58,354 nucleotides of DNA, taken from the IMG/VR virus record IMGVR_UViG_3300046674_000414, positions 1-58,354 of that record; one strand, given 5' to 3'. The DNA comes from a virus. This document shows positions 2,336 to 56,312 of this stretch, one piece after another. Positions within the stretch are counted from its first letter, which is position 1. Each line of letters begins with the position of its first letter. Made by a program: the position numbers and the translations under genes. The notes beneath the pieces were generated by a model. The model was not told the DNA's origin. It made no database searches and saw only the letters and a program-made list of their open reading frames with translations.

Positions 2336-3754
2336 GTGCTCGTGGCCTCCTTGCAGAAGCTTCAGCCGGGCGAGCCGTTGTGGTGGGTGGAGCGGATGTG
2401 GAAGGAGCTGGCGGAGCGCCGGCGCTACGCCGACCTCATGCGCCAGTACTACTCGGGTAACCACCCGCTGCCGATGATTCCGGAGAAGGCGCGGTCGGGC
2501 TTCCAGCGGCTCCTGAAGCAGTCCCGGTCGAACTATGTGGGCCTGGTCGTGGACGCCACGGCTGAGCGCCTCCAGATCGACGGGTTCCGCCTCGGTCAGA
2601 CGAAGGTCGGCGACCCGGAGCTGTGGCGCATCTGGCAGGCGAACAGCATGGATGCCGATTCTGATCTTCAGCTCACGGAGGCTGTGAAGGTCGGCAGGTC
2701 GTTTGCGCTGGTGGCGCCGAACCCGGACGACGACGCGACTCCGCTGATCACGGCGGAGGATGCGACTCAGGCCATCGTGGCCTACGAGTCGGGCAGCCGC
2801 CGTAAGCGCCGGGCCGGGCTGAAGACGTTTGTCGACGACTGGACTGGAGATATCTGGACGACGCTGTTCGTCGACGGAATGATCTTCAAGTATCGGGCGC
2901 CGGAGCCGCGGGTCGGCACTACGGGGTCGCCGAGGTGGGTGCGGCGTGAAGTCCAGGGCGAGGACTGGCCGGCGCGGAATCCGCTTGAGGCGGTACCGCT
3001 GGTGGAGATTCCGAACCGGCCGGACCTGCTGGGTGAGGCCCACTCGGAGATCGAGGACGTTCTCAACGATCAGGACCGGATCAACAAGACGCTGATCGAC
3101 CGCATGATGGCGCAGGAGTTCTCGGCGTTCCGGCAGCGGTGGATGACCGGCTACGAGGTTCCGGTCGATGACAACGGGCAGCCGATCGAGCCGTTCAAGG
3201 CGGCGGTGGACCGGCTGTGGGTGATCGAGGACGAGAACGTCAAGATCGGCGAGTTCCAGGCGACTGACCTGCGGCCGTACCTGGATTCGGTCGAGTCGGA
3301 TGTCCAGCACATGGCCGCGCGTACGCGGACGCCCGCACAGTACCTGCTGGGCAAGTTGTCCAACGTCAACGGCGAGACGTTGAAGGCGACCGAGTCCGGC
3401 CTGGTGGCGAAGGTGCGGCAGCGGCAGCGTTCCCTCGGTGAGGGGGAGGAAGAAGTGGCGCGGCTGGCGCTGCGGGCCACCGGGGACGATCGGGACCTTT
3501 CGGCGCTCGAGGTGATCTGGCACAACCCGGAGTTCCGTACCGAGGGTGAACTCGTCGATGCGCTGGTGAAGATGTCGACGCTCGGGGTGCCGCGGGAAGC
3601 GCTGTGGGAACGCTGGGGCGCTTCACAGACGGAGATCGCCCAATGGCGCGAACAGGCCGACCAGCAGGCCGCCAGGATTCTCGGCGGGGACCCGGCAAGC
3701 CTCTTCGGGCCGAAGCCGGACGTGACAGGGATCGGCGATGTCGACGCCGACTGA
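2336..3754 (+). CDS. Portal protein
   Basis: 472 aa ORF immediately after TerL. Alternative GTG start at 2342, 5 nt after GAGGGGG. Confidence 0.85.
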   Translation: MLVASLQKLQPGEPLWWVERMWKELAERRRYADLMRQYYSGNHPLPMIPEKARSGFQRLLKQSRSNYVGLVVDATAERLQIDGFRLGQTKVGDPELWRIWQANSMDADSDLQLTEAVKVGRSFALVAPNPDDDATPLITAEDATQAIVAYESGSRRKRRAGLKTFVDDWTGDIWTTLFVDGMIFKYRAPEPRVGTTGSPRWVRREVQGEDWPARNPLEAVPLVEIPNRPDLLGEAHSEIEDVLNDQDRINKTLIDRMMAQEFSAFRQRWMTGYEVPVDDNGQPIEPFKAAVDRLWVIEDENVKIGEFQATDLRPYLDSVESDVQHMAARTRTPAQYLLGKLSNVNGETLKATESGLVAKVRQRQRSLGEGEEEVARLALRATGDDRDLSALEVIWHNPEFRTEGELVDALVKMSTLGVPREALWERWGASQTEIAQWREQADQQAARILGGDPASLFGPKPDVTGIGDVDAD

Positions 3755-5339: not shown

Positions 5340-6284
5340 GTGCCGTACAACAACATCGTGTCGCGCACCGACGCGGCAGCCCTCATCCCCGAGGAAGTCT
5401 CGAACGAGATGCTCGGGAAGGCGATCGAGCAGTCCGCGACGCTGAGCCTGTTCCGTCGGGTCCCGGTGGGGCGAGGACAGGTCCGCTTCCCGGTCCTGTC
5501 CGCCCTGCCCACCGCCTACTTCGTCACGGGTGACACCGGGCTGAAGCAGACGACCGAGGTCAACTGGACGAACAAGTTCCTCAACATCGAGGAGATCGCG
5601 GCGATCATGCCGGTCCCGGACAATGTCCTGGCCGACGTCGACGCCAACGTCTGGGACGAGGCGTCCCCCCTGATCACCGAGGCGTTCGGGCGCTGCCTCG
5701 ACGCGGCCGTGTTCTTCGGCACCAACGCCCCCGCCAGTTGGCCGACCAACATCGCCGCCGCGGCGACCGCTGCCGGTAACGCGGTGACCGCAAACTCGGC
5801 AGCGGCGGCGGGCGCCTTCTTCGGCGACATCGACAACGGCTACGAGAAGGTCGAGGCCGACGGCTTCGAGGTGACCGGCTTCGTCGGCGCGACATCGGTG
5901 AAGTCGAAGCTGCGCAGGTCGCGTGACTCGCAGGGCAAGAAGCTTGACGAGTCCCGCGTCAACGGCGCCCTGACGCTGGTCGACGGCTACCCGATCATCT
6001 ACCCGATGCGCGGCCTGTTCCCGACTGCCAGCGGTTCGCCGCAGCTGTTCATGGGCGACTGGTCCCAGTACGTCGTCGGGGTGCGGTCGGACATTTCGAT
6101 GAAGATCCTCGACCAGGCCGTCATCCAGGACAACACGGGCGCGATCATCTACAACCTGGCCCAGCAGGACATGACCGCGATCCGGCTGACGTTCCGGGTG
6201 GGCTGGCAGGTCGCGAACACCATCAACAACGACCAGCCGACCGAGGCCAGCCGCTACCCGGTGGCCCGCCTCGACCTGCCGTAA
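5340..6284 (+). CDS. Major capsid protein (HK97 fold family)
   Basis: 314 aa. Region LPTAYFVTGDTGLKQTTEVNWTNKFLNIEEIAAIMPVPDNVLADVD is typical of HK97-type capsids. GTG start after ACGGAGG. Confidence 0.9.
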   Translation: MPYNNIVSRTDAAALIPEEVSNEMLGKAIEQSATLSLFRRVPVGRGQVRFPVLSALPTAYFVTGDTGLKQTTEVNWTNKFLNIEEIAAIMPVPDNVLADVDANVWDEASPLITEAFGRCLDAAVFFGTNAPASWPTNIAAAATAAGNAVTANSAAAAGAFFGDIDNGYEKVEADGFEVTGFVGATSVKSKLRRSRDSQGKKLDESRVNGALTLVDGYPIIYPMRGLFPTASGSPQLFMGDWSQYVVGVRSDISMKILDQAVIQDNTGAIIYNLAQQDMTAIRLTFRVGWQVANTINNDQPTEASRYPVARLDLP

Positions 6285-6679: not shown

Positions 6680-6889
6680 ATGGCGACCGCACGCAAGACG
6701 GCGGCGAAGAAGCCCGAGCTGGTCGAGGGCGAACAGCCCGACGAAGTGCCGGCGTTTGTCGACGAGGTGCACGAGCGGGGCGGCTGGGCGGTCGGCTACG
6801 TGGGCGACCGCGTCGACGACGCGGATGACGACACGTACACCGTCACCGGAGTCCTGAAGGCGGCGCAGGTCGATACGGGCGACGAATAG
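6680..6889 (+). CDS. Hypothetical protein
   Basis: 69 aa acidic ORF, tightly packed between structural genes. Confidence 0.55.
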   Translation: MATARKTAAKKPELVEGEQPDEVPAFVDEVHERGGWAVGYVGDRVDDADDDTYTVTGVLKAAQVDTGDE

Positions 6890-7515
6890 TGGGGGAGGTT
6901 GCCGTGGCTGTGCTTCCTTCGCTGGTGACGGTGACCGACCTCGCCGCGCTGCTCGGCCGCACGTTCACGCCGGAGCAGGAGTTGCAGGCGCAGGCTCTGC
7001 TGGATCAGGCGTCCAGCATCGTCCGCGCCTACGTCCGCCAGGACATCACCCGGGCCACCACGACCGACACGTTCATGATGCGGCGCGTCGATCCCCTGCG
7101 GTACGGGTGCGCGGGCGCGGTAACGCTGCCGCAGCGCCCCGTCGAGGAGGTCGCTGCGGTCGCGGTCGACGGCGTGGCGACGCTGGACTGGTGGCAGGAC
7201 GGCGCCGATCTGCTGATGCGGTCCTGGGCGTGGAACCGGCCTCCTGCGGCGCACCGTCCGCCGCAGGTCACGGTCACCTACACGCATGGGTGGGACCCGG
7301 TCCCCGGGGACATCCAGGCGATCGTGATGCAGGCCGCGAACCGGGTGATCGTCAACCCGTCCGGGGTCCGCTCGGAGACGGTGGGCGGCGAGTCCGTCAC
7401 CTACCTGATCCCGGCGGCCGGCGAGTACCTGGGCGTGCTGCTGTCCCGCACGGAGCAGCGGGTCCTGGACCGGTACCGGCGGACGGCCGGGTCGGTGCGG
7501 CTCGGGGGCGGCTGA
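6889..7515 (+). CDS. Head-to-tail adaptor (gp6-like connector)
   Basis: 208 aa. N-terminal LPSLVTVTDLAALLGRTFTPEQ..QA..LL..AS pattern. Likely real start is GTG 6904, after GGGGGAGG. Confidence 0.7.
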   Translation: MGEVAVAVLPSLVTVTDLAALLGRTFTPEQELQAQALLDQASSIVRAYVRQDITRATTTDTFMMRRVDPLRYGCAGAVTLPQRPVEEVAAVAVDGVATLDWWQDGADLLMRSWAWNRPPAAHRPPQVTVTYTHGWDPVPGDIQAIVMQAANRVIVNPSGVRSETVGGESVTYLIPAAGEYLGVLLSRTEQRVLDRYRRTAGSVRLGGG

Positions 7516-7853
7516 TGTTCTACCTCCAGGACATCGTGATCGTCAGGGCAGGAACGGCCGTGGACGACTACGGCAACGAAAAGCCGGACTGGGGTGCCGC
7601 CGCGGCCCGTACGCAGGTGTCCGGGGTGAACGTCCAGCCCAATGGCGGTTCCGTTGAGGACACCGACGACAAGCAGGTCACAGTGACGGGCTGGCGGCTG
7701 TACACGCCCCGCGGAATGGACCTCGACCTGCGGGAGACCGACCGGGTCGAAGCGTGGAGTACGACGATGCAGGTCACCGGGAAGGTTGCCCGCTGGCCCG
7801 CCCCTGGCGGCGGCGTGCACCACATCGAGGCGGACCTGCGGGAGGTGGCCTGA
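7515..7853 (+). CDS. Head closure / head-tail joining protein
   Basis: 112 aa (MFYLQDIVIVRAG...). ATGA overlap with the upstream stop. Position in the neck module. Confidence 0.65.
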   Translation: MFYLQDIVIVRAGTAVDDYGNEKPDWGAAAARTQVSGVNVQPNGGSVEDTDDKQVTVTGWRLYTPRGMDLDLRETDRVEAWSTTMQVTGKVARWPAPGGGVHHIEADLREVA

Positions 7854-8263
7854 TGGTCAGCGGATCGTTCCGGTACGTGCCGAACCCGAACTTGTTCCGG
7901 GAGTTGGCGCGCTCGCCTGCTGTGCGGGACATGCTGATGCGTCCGGCGGAACGCGGTGCGGCCGTTGCTCAGGCGATCGCCCCGAAGTACACCGGGCCGA
8001 CCTACAGTCCGGCGGTTCAGCGGCACGGCGAGTATGCGGCCAGTGTGTATTCGGCGGCGACTCTCCGGCCGAACGGCTGGCGGGCCGAGTTCGGGGCGAC
8101 CGCCCCGTGGACGCTCCAAGTGGAATTCGGCTCGGGCCGCATCGAGGCGCGCAGGCGTGACAGCCGGGGGCGTTTCCGGTCCGTCCGAGGACGCCCGCAG
8201 GGCGGCCACTCACCGAAGACGCGCACGCTCGGGCGTGCCCTGGACACCCTGAGGAGCACATGA
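7853..8263 (+). CDS. Neck / tail completion protein (HK97 gp10-like)
   Basis: 136 aa. ATGA overlap. Call rests on position and size. Confidence 0.55.
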   Translation: MVSGSFRYVPNPNLFRELARSPAVRDMLMRPAERGAAVAQAIAPKYTGPTYSPAVQRHGEYAASVYSAATLRPNGWRAEFGATAPWTLQVEFGSGRIEARRRDSRGRFRSVRGRPQGGHSPKTRTLGRALDTLRST

Positions 8264-46861: not shown

Positions 46862-46941
46862 CCCGCGACGAAGGGGGGCGCGCTTCCCGGGCGCGCACCC
46901 ACCGGCAAGACCGCACCCGTACGACCCGCAAGGAGCTCCGC

Positions 46942-47631
46942 ATGACCGACCCGTGTGCTGCCGCCACCTGCACCCGCACCCTCTACGACACCGAGACCGC
47001 CCTCCAGCAGCGGCTCTGCACCCCCTGCATCCGCGCCATCCGGACCTGGCTGGCCGCCGAACTCCCCCTCCAGATCACGGTCCTGGAGGCGTCGCTCCAG
47101 CGGGAGACCACCGGCCAGCCCTCCGGACGCGGCACCCGCACCGCACCCCTCCCCGGCCGCGAGGACGTGATCAACCTGATCGGGCCCGCCGCCTGGGGCA
47201 CCGTCACCGACCGGCACCGCGACCAGACCGGCGCGGTCCCCATCGTCGGCGTCCTCACCAGCTGGGTGCGACTGATCTGCGAGGAGCGCCGCTGGGACGG
47301 GCCCGACACCGCCAGCATCCAGGCATACGCCGCGTGGCTCGCCCACCCGCCGCTCCTCGACTGGACCGCCCGGCAAGGCTGGGCGGGGGAGATGCGCGAC
47401 GAGCTGGCCAGCCTCATGAGCGCGGTCCGGACGGCGACCAGCGTCCGGCCCCGGCGACGCCCCATCGCCCAGCCCTGCCCCCGGTGTGACGCCCTCACCC
47501 TCACCCGCGTCGACGGCGACACCTACGCCGACTGCGCCGACTGCGGGGCCATGTACTCGCGCGACGAGCTGGCGCTCGCGGCGCGCATCACAGTCGCCCG
47601 ACGCGACACGGACGCCGCCGTGGCATCCTGA
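46942..47631 (+). CDS. Hypothetical Cys-rich protein
   Basis: 229 aa. RBS AAGGAG. N- and C-terminal CxxC pairs. Confidence 0.65.
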   Translation: MTDPCAAATCTRTLYDTETALQQRLCTPCIRAIRTWLAAELPLQITVLEASLQRETTGQPSGRGTRTAPLPGREDVINLIGPAAWGTVTDRHRDQTGAVPIVGVLTSWVRLICEERRWDGPDTASIQAYAAWLAHPPLLDWTARQGWAGEMRDELASLMSAVRTATSVRPRRRPIAQPCPRCDALTLTRVDGDTYADCADCGAMYSRDELALAARITVARRDTDAAVAS

Positions 47632-48327: not shown

Positions 48328-48362
48328 GAAGCCCCGCCTCAACTCCACTGAGGCGGGGCTTC
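48328..48362. terminator. Bidirectional stem-loop terminator
   Basis: Perfect 14-bp stem GAAGCCCCGCCTCA / TGAGGCGGGGCTTC with a 7-nt loop, between convergent genes. Confidence 0.8.
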
Positions 48363-48377: not shown

Positions 48378-48647
48378 CTACTCAGGTTGGGGCTTGTTCG
48401 GCCCGCGCCCCCTGGTGGATCGCTTGCGGAAGAACGCCTCGATCGGCCCCCAAGGCATCGCCCAGGCGTTTCCGATCCGCATCCAGCGTTCGCGGGGGAC
48501 AGGCCATGCGGGGTCCGTGTCGGCGATGTGCCGTACGCCCTGCCGGGTGATGGGGCGGGGGAGGTAGTCGCCCGCGTTGAGGCGTCTGGCGATCTCGGTG
48601 AACGTCACCATCTCGGGGATTCCGCCCCCTTCGTCATCGTCCGGCAT
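48378..48647 (-). CDS. HTH DNA-binding protein (lone inverted gene)
   Basis: 89 aa. VTFTEIARRLNAGDYLPRPITRQGVRHIA. RBS GGAAGGTGG. Confidence 0.65.
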   Translation of the reverse strand: MPDDDEGGGIPEMVTFTEIARRLNAGDYLPRPITRQGVRHIADTDPAWPVPRERWMRIGNAWAMPWGPIEAFFRKRSTRGRGPNKPQPE

Positions 48648-48662
48648 GGCACCACCTTCCCA

Positions 48663-48697
48663 GAGTACTTGTCAAAGCGCCAGTACTCCCTTAGTCT
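48663..48697 (+). promoter_or_regulatory. Promoter TTGTCA-N17-TAGTCT bracketed by the inverted repeat GAGTACT/AGTACTC
   Basis: Hexamers at 48669-48674 and 48692-48697. The 7-bp inverted repeat at 48663-48669 / 48682-48688 flanks the -35. Confidence 0.55.
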
Positions 48698-48709
48698 CGA
48701 AACGCACGA

Positions 48710-48821
48710 AGCCCCGACCGCGTGGTGACACACGAGGCCGGGGCTGAACGGCGGCGGGGCCCGGTGGTGACACACCGAGCCCCGCCTCAACCCCGGTCCG
48801 ACGGTGACACGTCGGCCCGGG
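48710..48821 (+). promoter_or_regulatory. Leader with three stem-loops, each exposing GGTGACAC
   Basis: Hairpins at 48710-48745, 48753-48786 and 48792-48821. The GGTGACAC motif sits at 48724, 48766 and 48803, in or spanning the loops. Confidence 0.6.
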
Positions 48822-48850
48822 TCAGCCATCCACCTGCTTCACCAGGAGGA

Positions 48851-49543
48851 ATGACCATGGCCGATCGTAACGGCCCCCGCACCCCCGAGCCCACCCCGCG
48901 TACCCGCCGCGTCATCGCCGCCGGCTACGTCCGCCGCGGACCCCTCTCGCCCGCCGCCGCCCGCATGCAGGCGCTCCGCGAGTCCATCGCCCACCGCATC
49001 CTCACCAGCCGCCACATGACCGACGCCCGGCTCCTCGACGTCGCCCGCGTCCGCTCGATCATCCTCCTCACCGTCCGCCACCCCCACGGCGACCGCCCCT
49101 ACAGCATCTACGCCTTCCGCCAGGCCACCCCCATCGAGTGCGACCCCGGCCTCGCCAACCCCAGCCAGCCCGGCGACTGGATCAGCATCCACTGGCGCGA
49201 CGGACAGTACGACGACCTCCCCCACCTCACCGCCGACATCACCACCTGGGCCCACCACCACGCCGCCACCCGCATCGCCCACCTCCACCGCCGCACCGCC
49301 GACCACTACCGGCAGACGGCAGACGGCCACCCGATGAACGAGCCCCAGACCCAGACCCAGCGCCGTCGCCTCGTCGCCGCCGGATGGGTCCGCCGCGCAC
49401 CCGAGCCCGAGCAGGACCCCTCGGCCCGGCTCGCCGCCCTGCACCGCCTCTGCCGCGCCGACTACCAGCAGGCCGCCCCCCAGCGCACCGGCCGCAACCG
49501 CCGCGACGACGCCCACCCCATCGAGGCGGTGCACGCCCGATGA
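48851..49543 (+). CDS. Hypothetical protein with internal repeat
   Basis: 230 aa. RBS AGGAGGA. RRVIAAGYVRRGP... near the N-terminus and RRLVAAGWVRRAP... near the C-terminus. Confidence 0.65.
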   Translation: MTMADRNGPRTPEPTPRTRRVIAAGYVRRGPLSPAAARMQALRESIAHRILTSRHMTDARLLDVARVRSIILLTVRHPHGDRPYSIYAFRQATPIECDPGLANPSQPGDWISIHWRDGQYDDLPHLTADITTWAHHHAATRIAHLHRRTADHYRQTADGHPMNEPQTQTQRRRLVAAGWVRRAPEPEQDPSARLAALHRLCRADYQQAAPQRTGRNRRDDAHPIEAVHAR

Positions 49544-54572: not shown

Positions 54573-54637
54573 CCGCACCGGTCGGGCGGCGTACGCTCGT
54601 AGCAACATCCACGCACGCTCTGGCTGGATGGTGGACC

Positions 54638-54673
54638 GGGCCTCGCCGTGCACCCCCCGACGCGGCGAGGCCC
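54638..54673 (+). terminator. Stem-loop terminator
   Basis: 11-bp stem GGGCCTCGCCG / CGGCGAGGCCC with a 14-nt loop, after the phosphatase gene. Confidence 0.6.
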
Positions 54674-54702
54674 GCCCCGTTTCCGGCCGTCAAGAGGGCT
54701 GC

Positions 54703-54731
54703 TGGACATTCGGCGATCACTGCTGCATAAT
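54703..54731 (+). promoter_or_regulatory. Strong sigma70(HrdB)-like promoter TGGACA-N17-CATAAT
   Basis: Best consensus match seen in the window. Followed by a leader hairpin at 54770-54791 (AGCCCCCG/CGGGGGCT, then TTCG). Confidence 0.6.
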
Positions 54732-54813
54732 CCGATGCCAGCAGCACACCTGCGCCCACACGCCACACCAGCCCCCGCCAAACCGGGGGCTTTCGCATGC
54801 TCAGGGGGTGACC

Positions 54814-55053
54814 ATGCCCCCCACCGACGAGCCCGGCCGCGACGCCGACGGGACCATCTGGTTCACCATCCGGCAGGCCAGCGACTTCCTCGGCGTGCAC
54901 GTGCAGACGATCTACAGCTGGGAACGCCGAGGCCGCCTCGACCGAGACGACGCCCACCGCGACGAACACGGGCGACGCATCTACACCCAGCAGCAGATCG
55001 CACGCGCCGAACGCGCCGCGAGACACAACACGCCCGGCCTCCGCGCCGCCTGA
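54814..55053 (+). CDS. MerR/excisionase-family HTH protein
   Basis: 79 aa. WFTIRQASDFLGVHVQTIYSWERRGRL. Confidence 0.75.
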   Translation: MPPTDEPGRDADGTIWFTIRQASDFLGVHVQTIYSWERRGRLDRDDAHRDEHGRRIYTQQQIARAERAARHNTPGLRAA

Positions 55054-55231: not shown

Positions 55232-55247
55232 CCGACAGGAGGTGACC

Positions 55248-56312
55248 GTGGCCTTCCCCGCCGGAACCCCCGTCGTGACCCTGACCGGCACCCTCCCCTC
55301 CGCCGTCGCGGGCACCGGATACGGCGGGCAGATCGTCTGCACCCCCTCCGCACTCCTCACCGACCCCACACGCCACGCCATCTACCCCGGCGGCGGCAAG
55401 ACCGACATCATCAACGGCGAGTTCAGCGTCCAACTCATCCCCAACAACGCGGCCGGGATCGAGCCTGACGGATGGCGCTGGTACGTCGACATCCAACCCG
55501 CACGCGGTGGACAACGGGCTGCGTTCTGGGCCGACATCCACGGCAACAACGGCGACACCATCCACCTCGACACGCTCATCCCCACACAAGCCCCCGGCGG
55601 CGGCACCACCGGAACCCCTGGGAAGTCGGCGTACGAGGTCGCCGTCGAGCAGGGCTACACCGGCACCGTCACCCAGTGGCTAGCAAGCCTCGTCGGACCC
55701 CAAGGACCCGCCGGGCCGACCGGAGCGACTGGCGCAACCGGGGCCGCCGGAGCAACCGGGGCGCAGGGGGCAACGGGAGCGACCGGCCCCAAGGGCGATA
55801 CCGGAGACACCGGACCCCAAGGCGCACCCGGAACCCCCGCCGACATGGCGCGCGTACAGGCCCTCGAAACCGAGATGCCGACCAAGGCCGACCTCGATGG
55901 CGCGACCTTCACGGGCGACGTCCTCCTGCGCGGCGCCAACCTCACCGTCGAACGCGACGACGAAACCGGCGCCTACCGCTTCCGCGTCACCGGCGGCGGC
56001 CTCGACCTCGAAGTCGCAGGCATGGACGTCATCGTCAGCCTCTGGCAGAACCCCGACTTCAGCGGCGCGCAGACGGCGATGATGCGCTGGGAACCCGCCG
56101 GACCCCACCTCATCGGCCGCGTCCAGATCGGCACCGGACCGTACGACGTCGTCCACGACCTCGACGCCGCAGGCAACCGCCTCGGCTTCTACGGGGTCGC
56201 CTCCGTCACCCGGCAGACCGTGAACGGACAGTGGGGCGACGGAACCGCTGGCGAATCGCTCGCCGCCGCCCTCGACGCGCTCGGCCTCATCGACGACCAG
56301 ACCACCCCGTAG
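55248..56312 (+). CDS. Collagen-like tail fibre protein
   Basis: 354 aa. 16 uninterrupted Gly-X-Y triplets (GPQGPAGPTGATGATGAAGATGAQGATGATGPKGDTGDTGPQGAPGTP). GTG 55248 after ACAGGAGG. Confidence 0.8.
   Translation: MAFPAGTPVVTLTGTLPSAVAGTGYGGQIVCTPSALLTDPTRHAIYPGGGKTDIINGEFSVQLIPNNAAGIEPDGWRWYVDIQPARGGQRAAFWADIHGNNGDTIHLDTLIPTQAPGGGTTGTPGKSAYEVAVEQGYTGTVTQWLASLVGPQGPAGPTGATGATGAAGATGAQGATGATGPKGDTGDTGPQGAPGTPADMARVQALETEMPTKADLDGATFTGDVLLRGANLTVERDDETGAYRFRVTGGGLDLEVAGMDVIVSLWQNPDFSGAQTAMMRWEPAGPHLIGRVQIGTGPYDVVHDLDAAGNRLGFYGVASVTRQTVNGQWGDGTAGESLAAALDALGLIDDQTTP

Follow-up and report, generated by a model that had tools for sequence, protein, structure and literature searches.

In the plasmids ColE1 (RNA I/RNA II) and R1 (CopA/CopT), pairing between an antisense RNA and its target is initiated at the loops, and in pCF10 an antisense RNA from the overlap of two facing units attenuates the opposing transcript. 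In phage lambda, nutL lies just after an operator-controlled promoter, and ANTAR regulators, which have dual hexaloop RNAs, occur in actinobacteria. Plasmid pMV158 combines a small repressor, CopG, with an antisense RNA, RNAII, and recognition loops of antisense systems generally carry a YUNR U-turn (PMC4485353). Post-initiation regulation in Streptomyces phages is almost unexplored, and a search of the literature and Rfam found no antitermination, antisense or RNA-operator system of such kind for these phages. Here we analysed a 58,354-bp stretch of viral DNA (IMG/VR record IMGVR_UViG_3300046674_000414, positions 1 to 58,354; hereafter the window) and describe a conserved cassette in which an operator-flanked, predicted rightward promoter (PR) is followed by a leader with three hairpins displaying the same hexaloop. 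The main new result is that the loops of one phage match one another but differ from those of other phages; in addition, a conserved hexamer on the minus strand implies a putative promoter (PL) that faces PR from within the first gene of the operon.

The three hairpins had been placed in the leader by an original prediction made from the letters of the window, and RNAfold of the leader reproduced all of them together with a small fourth helix over the Shine-Dalgarno sequence (Table 1), at a minimum free energy of -90 kcal/mol (z = -5.45, none of 200 shuffles being as stable). An octamer said to lie always in the loop and to form the entire 8-nt loop of hairpin 3, and by eye not found elsewhere in the window, is indeed present in all three hairpins, but its outer G and C form the closing pair, in hairpin 3 as well, and the loop is the hexamer GUGACA. 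Three extra octamer copies lie outside hairpins, at 5529 (+), 26554 (-) and 51619 (-); the count in the window is six compared with 3.0 +/- 1.6 expected, and what goes beyond chance is the cluster of three octamers within 80 nt, each in a loop. The three hairpin units have only a 14-nt top in common and their stems differ, and the loop-proximal stem of hairpin 3 has ACG/CGU where GUG/CAC is usual, a compensatory change. The matched-loop hairpins stop at least 23 nt upstream of the Shine-Dalgarno sequence, have internal mismatches at no fixed position, and are spaced by 35–42 bp and hence not helically phased. The CCUG-N7-9-CAGG pairing of the Shine-Dalgarno helix is kept in the alignment of related leaders with U.G variants, although its support is weak (helix 5, 73% paired). 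In-frame ATG codons follow at 48851 and 48857, the latter being better spaced from the Shine-Dalgarno sequence.

A sensitive blastn search of the region against 50,697 phage records gave one match, the hairpin stretch of phage VWB (15630-15732, 78.5% identity), where the VWB record has no annotation. The VWB layout consists of the leftward gp21, a promoter, three GGUG[GUGACA]CACC hairpins, CCUGCU...CAGGAG and gp22. Pattern scans with 12-mer pairs recovered the cassette from seven Streptomyces or actinobacterial genomes, from viral contigs and from three metagenome contigs, and further loci were collected via homologues of the small leftward protein and then via a loop-agnostic pattern in which stem tops were fixed and loops free. 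The cassette recurs in VWB and about 30 Streptomyces prophage or viral contigs, with the positions of promoter, operator and three-hairpin leader kept and the array present in one copy per genome. A scan for three copies of GGTGACAC returned unrelated tandem or coding repeats except for one true locus, and a broad scan of the window for hexaloop hairpins was uninformative in this GC-rich genome. No Rfam 15 family reached its gathering threshold (best Scr3202, 26.1 bits compared with 52), and the element was not described in the literature searched for the octamer, VWB stem-loops, U-less actinophage terminators, phiC31 inverted repeats and actinophage antisense leaders.

Within an array the loops are nearly always identical. 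Besides the window and VWB, with GUGACA three times, triple-identical arrays carry GUGAGA (L188), GUCGCA (L193, L229), GUUGCA (L190, L191, L217), UUGGAG (L206) or CUGGAA (L226), and all three loops are GUUGCA in L180 and L183, which were found as distant homologues of the small protein. Mixed arrays occur in L185 (AUGACA/AUGACA/AUGACG), L220 (GUGACA/GUAGCA/GUAGCA) and L236 (GUGGCA/GUUGCG/GUGGCA) and look like intermediates. This within-array identity is not a search artefact, because the loci were retrieved without any condition on loop sequence. Two pairs of close relatives illustrate how the loops switch together: L229 and L236 have near-identical stems and are close through the small gene and leader (69% identity over the whole pairwise alignment), yet differ in all three loops, and between L184 and L185 one and the same G-to-A change is repeated in all three loops. 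All 11 loop types found in arrays fit N-U-N-R-N-R, with U2 invariant, purines at positions 4 and 6, and positions 1, 3 and 5 free, and the four loop-proximal base pairs are nearly always GGUG/CACC. The stems of hairpins 1, 2 and 3 are mutually different but are kept between phages at the same position, which excludes homogenisation of whole hairpins. Given that matching within arrays goes with variation from phage to phage, a sequence-specific partner would be expected to read them; the comparison gives strong indirect support to loop reading by something specific. Of the recognition that had originally been suggested from the repeated loops, the concerted switching between phages thus speaks in favour, while no reading partner was found near the array.

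The stems appear to be under selection, as judged from a MAFFT alignment of 23 leaders scored on the window structure. Paired cells amounted to 85.8% compared with 79.0% in shuffles, and 23 of 44 pairs were changed on both sides compared with 12.4 in shuffles; none of 500 shuffles matched any of the pairing measures, and slid registers were at most 46% paired. The covariation that the original prediction had proposed to look for in related phages is therefore present. RNAalifold classified 12 of 23 pairs as compensatory, hairpin 2 is the best conserved with compensatory changes in seven of its 13 pairs, and all 67 hairpin instances fold, with 8–15 bp.

The minus strand carries signals of its own, which the original prediction had overlooked: the putative facing promoter, a U-rich tail after hairpin 1 and better pairing of the array. 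Within 75 nt downstream of the Shine-Dalgarno sequence, 22 of the 24 listed loci (of which two are near-identical) have a minus-strand TAnnnT at one constant register; it is the only TAnnnT in those 75 nt with one exception, and ends about 20 nt before the Shine-Dalgarno complement. The hexamers are TACGAT, TACCAT, TACTCT, TACTAT, TAAGGT, TAGGGT, TAGCAT and TAGATT, with T1, A2 and T6 invariant and the middle free, and the remaining two loci have CATAAT and AAGATT; L238 and L239, relatives of the first gene of the window, also keep TAnnnT. This fixed minus-strand hexamer accounts for first codons that are oddly alike (MxDRI/T) despite unrelated first genes. Its conservation follows the pattern of a -10 element and implies a putative promoter facing PR. 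Ungapped stems contain 44 A.C and C.A mismatches, each a G.U pair when read on the minus strand, compared with 14 plus-strand G.U pairs, and in 20 of 23 loci the array is predicted to be more stable as minus-strand RNA (by a mean of 5.5 kcal/mol, Wilcoxon p = 0.0002), although these counts and the test take related loci as independent. For the minus-strand RNA of the window the predicted folding energy is -103.1 kcal/mol (z = -5.58), with hairpin 2 forming an uninterrupted 14-bp helix. Hairpin 1 is followed on this strand by the U-rich tail GGGGCUUCGUGCGUUUCG in the window; across loci the A-rich flank 5' of hairpin 1 has the consensus AAAGCCCCG, which reads GGGGCUUU or GGGGCUUUGUG on the minus strand, and tails of the GGGGCUUUGUG type resemble the imperfect U tails of actinobacterial terminators. 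These minus-strand tails do not pass a strict scan (at least five T in eight), and on the plus strand no U run follows hairpins 1–3. Taken together, both strands are probably transcribed and folded.

We tentatively propose, as the best reading although one that may well prove wrong, a face-to-face promoter cassette in which two structured, overlapping leaders would make contact by their U-turn loops. A small DNA-binding protein would shut PR at its palindromic operator, and PL, about 170 bp from PR inside the first codons of the operon, would fire toward PR. Transcription of the overlap of about 155 nt in both directions would yield two fully complementary structured RNAs: a sense leader, in which the three hairpins are followed by the helix that covers the ribosome-binding site, and an antisense RNA, about 160 nt long, that would span the whole leader, cover the ribosome-binding site and start codon, and either end at hairpin 1 with its U-rich tail or run on into the small regulator gene. 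The hexaloops with their U-N-R core, present in all 11 loop types, could be contact points for fast loop-loop pairing of the two RNAs, with loop positions 3–5 setting specificity, and such pairing might also act in trans between the RNAs of co-resident phages. Identical loops would let the first hairpins made by converging polymerases pair, that is sense hairpin 1 with antisense hairpin 3', which are otherwise non-complementary. The outcome would be post-initiation control of the operon, in addition to repression at the operator, through blocked translation, RNA decay or colliding polymerases.

Beyond the relatedness of loci in the strand comparison, several points weigh against this proposal. 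A strict sigma-70 scan called neither PR nor PL, and PL has no recognisable -35 element. Simple antisense control does not need identical loops, because a cis-antisense pair is complementary by construction; identical loops would then help nascent 5' hairpins to cross-pair, or RNAs to act in trans. Loop position 1 is G or A in nine of the 11 types and a pyrimidine precedes the U-N-R core in two, leaving the full YUNR consensus unmatched. Relatives carry one or two hairpins (one plain hairpin and one GGUG[CUUCAA]CACC hairpin in plasmid-like phages, and a single hairpin with a larger loop containing GUGAGA in L238 and L239), and three hairpins are therefore not essential. Finally, the GGUG-N6-CACC motif may partly be a general hairpin style of these phages: hairpins closing leftward genes (the small regulator, or an HTH_31 gene after it) are often of GGUG-N6-CACC or G-hexaloop-C style, with loops that differ from those of their own array (GUGGAA; CGUCAA; a tandem pair with GUGCAA; GUGACA; GUGCAC). 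In L125, with both read from the same strand, the gene-end hairpin has a loop exactly complementary to those of the array. N-U-N-R-N-R holds for loops read on the plus strand and was counted against a minus-strand signal; gene-end hairpins, read in the direction in which they are transcribed, have loops of the GUNNNA type (L125 GUGACA, L193 GUGCAA twice, L190 GUGGAA).

Several candidate partners of the loops were examined. By eye, no match of the loops to the operator, the -35 element or the 16S rRNA 3' end recurred consistently from one loop type to another. The idea of a complementary RNA partner at another site was rejected, as neither in the window nor in VWB does any further copy of the octamer, or of its complement, fall in a loop. 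In VWB (L179), a perfect inverted repeat, GTGACACAAGGTGTGTCAC, which consists of the loop heptamer and its complement, lies at 46932-46950, 13 nt past the stop codon of gp56. The palindrome after gp56, GTGACACA, is found only in VWB; gp56 is annotated as a transcriptional regulator, and no counterpart to the inverted repeat was found in the window or the other loci.

The strongest alternative to the facing-promoter cassette, which we regard as possible but on the unlikely side, is that a probably oligomeric phage RNA-binding protein reads the sense hairpins (GGUG/CACC, U2 and R6 as constant contacts, positions 1 and 3–5 for specificity) in the manner of boxB/N or a translational operator, so that binding alters read-through, stability or translation of the operon, and loop code and protein co-evolve into specificity groups. 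It would be the most direct account of loops that are identical within and different between phages, including the three parallel G-to-A changes between L184 and L185; GGUG/CACC is conserved far beyond the needs of pairing, and the position just after an operator-controlled promoter matches that of lambda nutL. Extra terminal hairpins of the same style, including the two GUGCAA loops in L193, would fit a protein with several targets. Against it, no candidate emerged: no conserved protein partner adjoins the array among the loci compared, the first genes belong to at least three unrelated families and the later genes differ too, and no RNA-binding domain was detected among the neighbouring window genes scanned. 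A search for a co-varying neighbour protein, covering first genes and the flanks of L184, L185, L188 and L193, found none that was universal or tracked the loops, and a 400-aa HTH_31 protein considered as loop reader is present only in the GUUGCA group and L186. The small leftward protein is an unlikely reader as well, because the same loops, GUGACA among them, are found alongside more than one small-protein family and operator type. Each genome has a single array, and downstream terminators are not above chance (a U-tract scan of 44–58.3 kb, which is blind to U-less terminators, gave five sites compared with 4.6 expected, with none of them on the plus strand).

A bolder reading, that the hexaloops form a programmable code in which a constant scaffold (GGUG/CACC, U2, R4, R6) holds a variable triplet read by a dedicated partner, either the phage's own antisense RNA in trans or a phage protein, is speculative and in our view rather unlikely to hold as stated. 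If true, loop type would define which groups of Streptomyces temperate phages cross-regulate and which do not, an RNA-based layer of immunity or exclusion that changes by three-fold loop switching, and it would be the first case reported for actinophages of regulatory specificity based on RNA hairpins.

It is improbable that the hairpins are structural punctuation without a reader, acting as tandem terminators or insulators against leftward transcription or as 5' stabilisers of the mRNA, with loop identity arising by triplication and local homogenisation. The U-rich tail after hairpin 1 and the better pairing on the minus strand would suit terminators, hairpin clusters have been proposed to terminate transcription (PMC8355165), and both the distance of hairpin 1 from the predicted 5' end (5–7 nt) and a hairpin number that ranges from one to three are in keeping with punctuation. 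This view leaves at least six complete three-fold loop switches and the N-U-N-R-N-R pattern unexplained, the position-specific stems exclude homogenisation of whole hairpins, and the plus-strand hairpins are without the U tract that mycobacterial RNA polymerase is reported to need (PMC3993855). Sites acting at the DNA level are very unlikely, whether three GGTG-N6-CACC sites bound by a dimeric protein (origin iterons), recombinase cores with a matching 6-bp centre, or cruciforms: arms around an asymmetric, identical 6-bp centre do recall iterons and tyrosine-recombinase cores, and the centres change together across copies, but the outer arms vary while staying complementary, which duplex binding does not demand, the placement between promoter, Shine-Dalgarno helix and facing -10 together with N-U-N-R-N-R fits RNA better, the VWB attP is 15 kb away, the spacings are unphased, and positive supercoiling from facing transcription would disfavour cruciform extrusion.

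Open reading frames (ORFs) run across the hairpins on both strands, giving VVTH from 48722-48856 (+) and VCHH from 48605-48829 (-). A coding reading was rejected, as the frame is broken by the 42- and 37-nt spacings and a strong Shine-Dalgarno sequence precedes the real start; these ORFs are artefacts of high G+C content and not genes. Gene callers may stretch the first gene upstream through the hairpins.

Table 1. Coordinates of cassette features, given in window positions except where another locus is named.
Feature	Coordinates	Strand	Description
GC-rich 13-bp hairpin	48329..48361	.	AAGCCCCGCCTCA / TGAGGCGGGGCTT; terminator-like in both directions; minus-strand fold
Small gene, 89 aa	48378..48647	-	G+C content at third codon positions (GC3) 0.85; 69 homologue clusters, all Streptomyces, none named
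Operator O1	48663..48688	.	GAGTACT (48663-48669)-N12-AGTACTC (48682-48688) palindrome enclosing the PR -35
Predicted promoter PR	48669..48697	+	TTGTCA 48669-48674, 17-nt spacer, TAGTCT 48692-48697
Hairpin 1	48710..48745	+	7+2+4 bp; A.C and G.A mismatches; loop GUGACA 48725-48730
Hairpin 2	48753..48786	+	8+5 bp; one C.A mismatch (U.G on minus strand); loop GUGACA 48767-48772
Hairpin 3	48792..48821	+	5+6 bp; U.C mismatch; loop GUGACA 48804-48809
Shine-Dalgarno helix	48830..48849	+	CCACCUG...CAGGAGG; AGGAGG (48844-48849) paired with conserved upstream CCUG
First gene, 228 aa	48857..49543	+	Duplicated RRRxxAAGxVRR motif; four homologue clusters besides itself
Putative PL -10, TACGAT	48864..48869	-	Codons 3-5 of first gene; predicted start near the start codon of the first gene
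Gene-end hairpins	L190 3614-3641; L191 4643-4670; L193 962-1033; L125 ~3500-3535; L136 2571-2598		

The TTGTCA-N17-TAGTCT promoter with its -35 element bracketed by an inverted repeat, as originally predicted, holds in the sequence, and its predicted start is near 48704. Across loci, TTGnnn-N17/18-TAnnnT is kept upstream of hairpin 1 at a distance of about 13 nt in most and of 29–38 nt in the L122/L127/L129 group. In relatives the palindrome stays over the promoter (around the -35, or between or over the -35 and -10), while its sequence is lineage-specific; in VWB, whose promoter is TTGACA-N18-TACGTT, a different palindrome, GAACCTCTT...AAGAGGTTC, surrounds the -35. A second palindrome with half-sites as in O1 (GTACTG...CAGTAC, for example GTACTTGCGC...GCGCAGTAC) overlaps the putative leftward -10 in several lineages and lies in the first ~35 nt of the first gene (L180, L183, L188, L190, L191, L220, L229, L236); the window itself does not have it. 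Two operators about 190 bp apart that flank the array would make DNA looping possible. In a blastn search against plasmids only the promoter-operator part matched, in a 90-kb Streptomyces plasmid.

The small leftward gene, described before as a lone inverted helix-turn-helix (HTH) gene, is real as judged by its GC3 and homologues; the HTH label is plausible, although the protein had no Pfam or PHROG match and no Foldseek match at E < 0.1 (best 0.38, with Mu transposase, TraN and forkhead winged helices at E 1–3), and a profile search against PDB gave spurious matches only. An AlphaFold (AF2) model with a pLDDT of 76.5 has the order strand-helix-helix-strand-strand-helix, as in winged-helix or excisionase-like proteins, and the sequence has a conserved VTFTEIA...ITRQGVRHIADTDPxWP motif and an RxRxxRGRG C-terminal tail. 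The gene probably encodes a winged-helix DNA-binding regulator on the strength of this model, and the protein is presumed to read the AGTACT half-sites of the operator. In VWB, the annotated TTG start of gp21 (L121 2692-2970) overlaps the -35 of the rightward promoter, and an internal ATG (MTIADICTEHGVSRQTL...) after GGTGATGAG looks like the real start, which would give a short, excisionase-like HTH protein. Many homologues of the small protein are on contigs of about 88–93 kb (L181, L182, L186, L187, L189; range 65–93 kb), one of which, AP023409.1, is a Streptomyces libani plasmid; this suggests a plasmid-like prophage family with a reduced cassette. The gene ends next to a 13-bp GC-rich hairpin (Table 1) that closes both the leftward small gene and the rightward genes upstream. 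Its earlier description as a strong bidirectional terminator stands as to the hairpin and its place just past the end of the minus-strand gene, but the hairpin is below the threshold of a strict U-tract scan.

The first gene product of the window carries RTRRVIAAGYVRRGP near its N-terminus and RRRLVAAGWVRRAP near its C-terminus, and the short products of the first genes in L122, L130, L176, L180 and L188 contain related RR(V/L)(I/V)AA motifs. Another first-gene family of about 100–116 aa with a TRGEYALRLR end comprises VWB gp22 and genes of L184, L185, L193, L123, L127, L134, L220 and L167; across loci that differ in their loops, the residue preceding the terminal LR is R, C, L, N or H, but the cases are too few, and confounded by relatedness, to count as co-variation. 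The first gene is followed by a block that, according to the original prediction, encodes membrane proteins. The PP2C phosphatase assigned to the downstream operon by the original prediction was confirmed by a PP2C/SpoIIE domain match. Farther downstream, 54628-55053 and 55242-56312 encode a MerR/HTH_17-type protein (E = 2e-7) and a collagen triple-helix repeat protein (E = 8e-9), and a promoter-like TGGACA-N17-CATAAT is found at 54703-54731. SpdB2-like spreading proteins have been reported in phiC31 and VWB (PMC4447253). In L130, from an uncultured Actinomycetota, about 15 units with a period of ~72–73 bp and the hairpin GCGATCCTCCGCCGTCCCGGAGGACGAC lie at 6780-7960, a few kb from the cassette, with a repeat spacing as expected of a CRISPR array.

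The window has a G+C content of 70% and looks like a complete genome of a Streptomyces-type temperate phage, because terminase, portal, capsid and tail genes occupy the plus strand of its first 21 kb. The cassette stands at the head of the last 9.5 kb before the genome end, where proteins of no assigned function accompany the PP2C/SpoIIE phosphatase. In VWB it is located between the early or replication genes and the block gp22-gp32, itself upstream of terminase, and far from the genes for the cro-like repressor (gp2) and integrase at 0.2–2.9 kb.

The element is conserved and undescribed, and suggests that actinophages have a step of control at the RNA level that depends on sequence. Its loops, matched yet variable, and the putative facing promoter are worth following up, and what reads the loop is directly testable by loop swaps, because natural variants differ only in their loops (L229/L236, L184/L185). 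Since the cassette heads accessory operons, which in the window include the PP2C phosphatase, it may time prophage expression of genes altering host physiology. The cassette is compact, modular and widespread, and orthogonal pairs of hairpin and reader from a high-GC host would be useful parts for Streptomyces engineering.

Compared on individual features, the parallels drawn by the original prediction do not extend to membership in any of the boxB/N, put or coat-protein operator systems. As in the cassette, lambda nut has a specific hairpin loop shortly after an early promoter under operator control, and this loop too differs between related phages; it has a single stem of ~5 bp with a GNRA-like pentaloop, whereas the cassette has three hairpins with N-U-N-R-N-R hexaloops and stems of 11–14 bp, or 8–15 bp over all 67 instances. 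No boxA was visible by eye in the window leader, there is no conserved N-like gene because the first genes fall into several unrelated families, and lambda N has sites in more than one operon, in contrast to one array per genome here. HK022 put consists of two stem-loops that act in cis on RNA polymerase, need no phage protein and are invariant for a given host polymerase, whereas the loops described here vary within one host genus and switch together; Rfam gave no put match at E <= 10. The MS2/PP7 coat operator has a bulged purine and overlaps the start codon or ribosome-binding site, whereas the array has neither a fixed mismatch nor such an overlap.

Other described elements share single traits. 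ANTAR dual hexaloop RNAs likewise have tandem hexaloop hairpins in a leader, but with conserved A1 and G4 and short stems, where the array has mostly G at position 1, A or G at position 4, and long stems; no ANTAR match was obtained in Rfam at E <= 10. The phiC31 inverted repeats are likewise a repeated palindromic motif of a Streptomyces temperate phage connected with early transcription, but CCTACTCACGTGAGTAGG is unrelated in sequence, a perfect duplex palindrome that is not displayed in a loop, and has ~15–31 copies of its 10-mers genome-wide; phiC31 repressor sites were rejected as an unrelated motif. ToxI-like repeats are near-identical tandem units of ~34–36 nt with a terminator and an endoribonuclease gene, whereas here the stems differ and the downstream gene is not conserved. 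Of intrinsic or hairpin-cluster terminators, the plus strand lacks the U run, and hairpin 1 on the minus strand has the feature in part.

By analogy, the closest functional parallels appear to be the plasmid countertranscript systems and the face-to-face switches of 186, P2 and pCF10. The countertranscript systems of pMV158 (CopG and RNAII), R1 (CopB and CopA/CopT) and ColE1 (RNA I/RNA II) combine a small promoter repressor with an antisense RNA complementary to the leader directly before the translation signals of the first gene, the latter predicted here, and their multi-hairpin RNAs have loops that start pairing and set specificity, as we propose for the cassette; they control replication genes, have the repressor gene upstream within one operon and are not known to have identical loops, whereas the cassette heads a phage operon next to a divergent gene for the presumed repressor and has three identical loops. 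Facing promoters (one of them putative here), a repressor (presumed here) encoded in the leftward unit and an operator over the rightward promoter are shared with 186 pR/pL, P2 Pe/Pc and pCF10 prgQ/prgX. What sets the cassette apart from these switches is an overlap of about 155 nt filled with three matched-loop hairpins, and a location that, at least in VWB, is away from the main immunity region and at the head of varied accessory operons.

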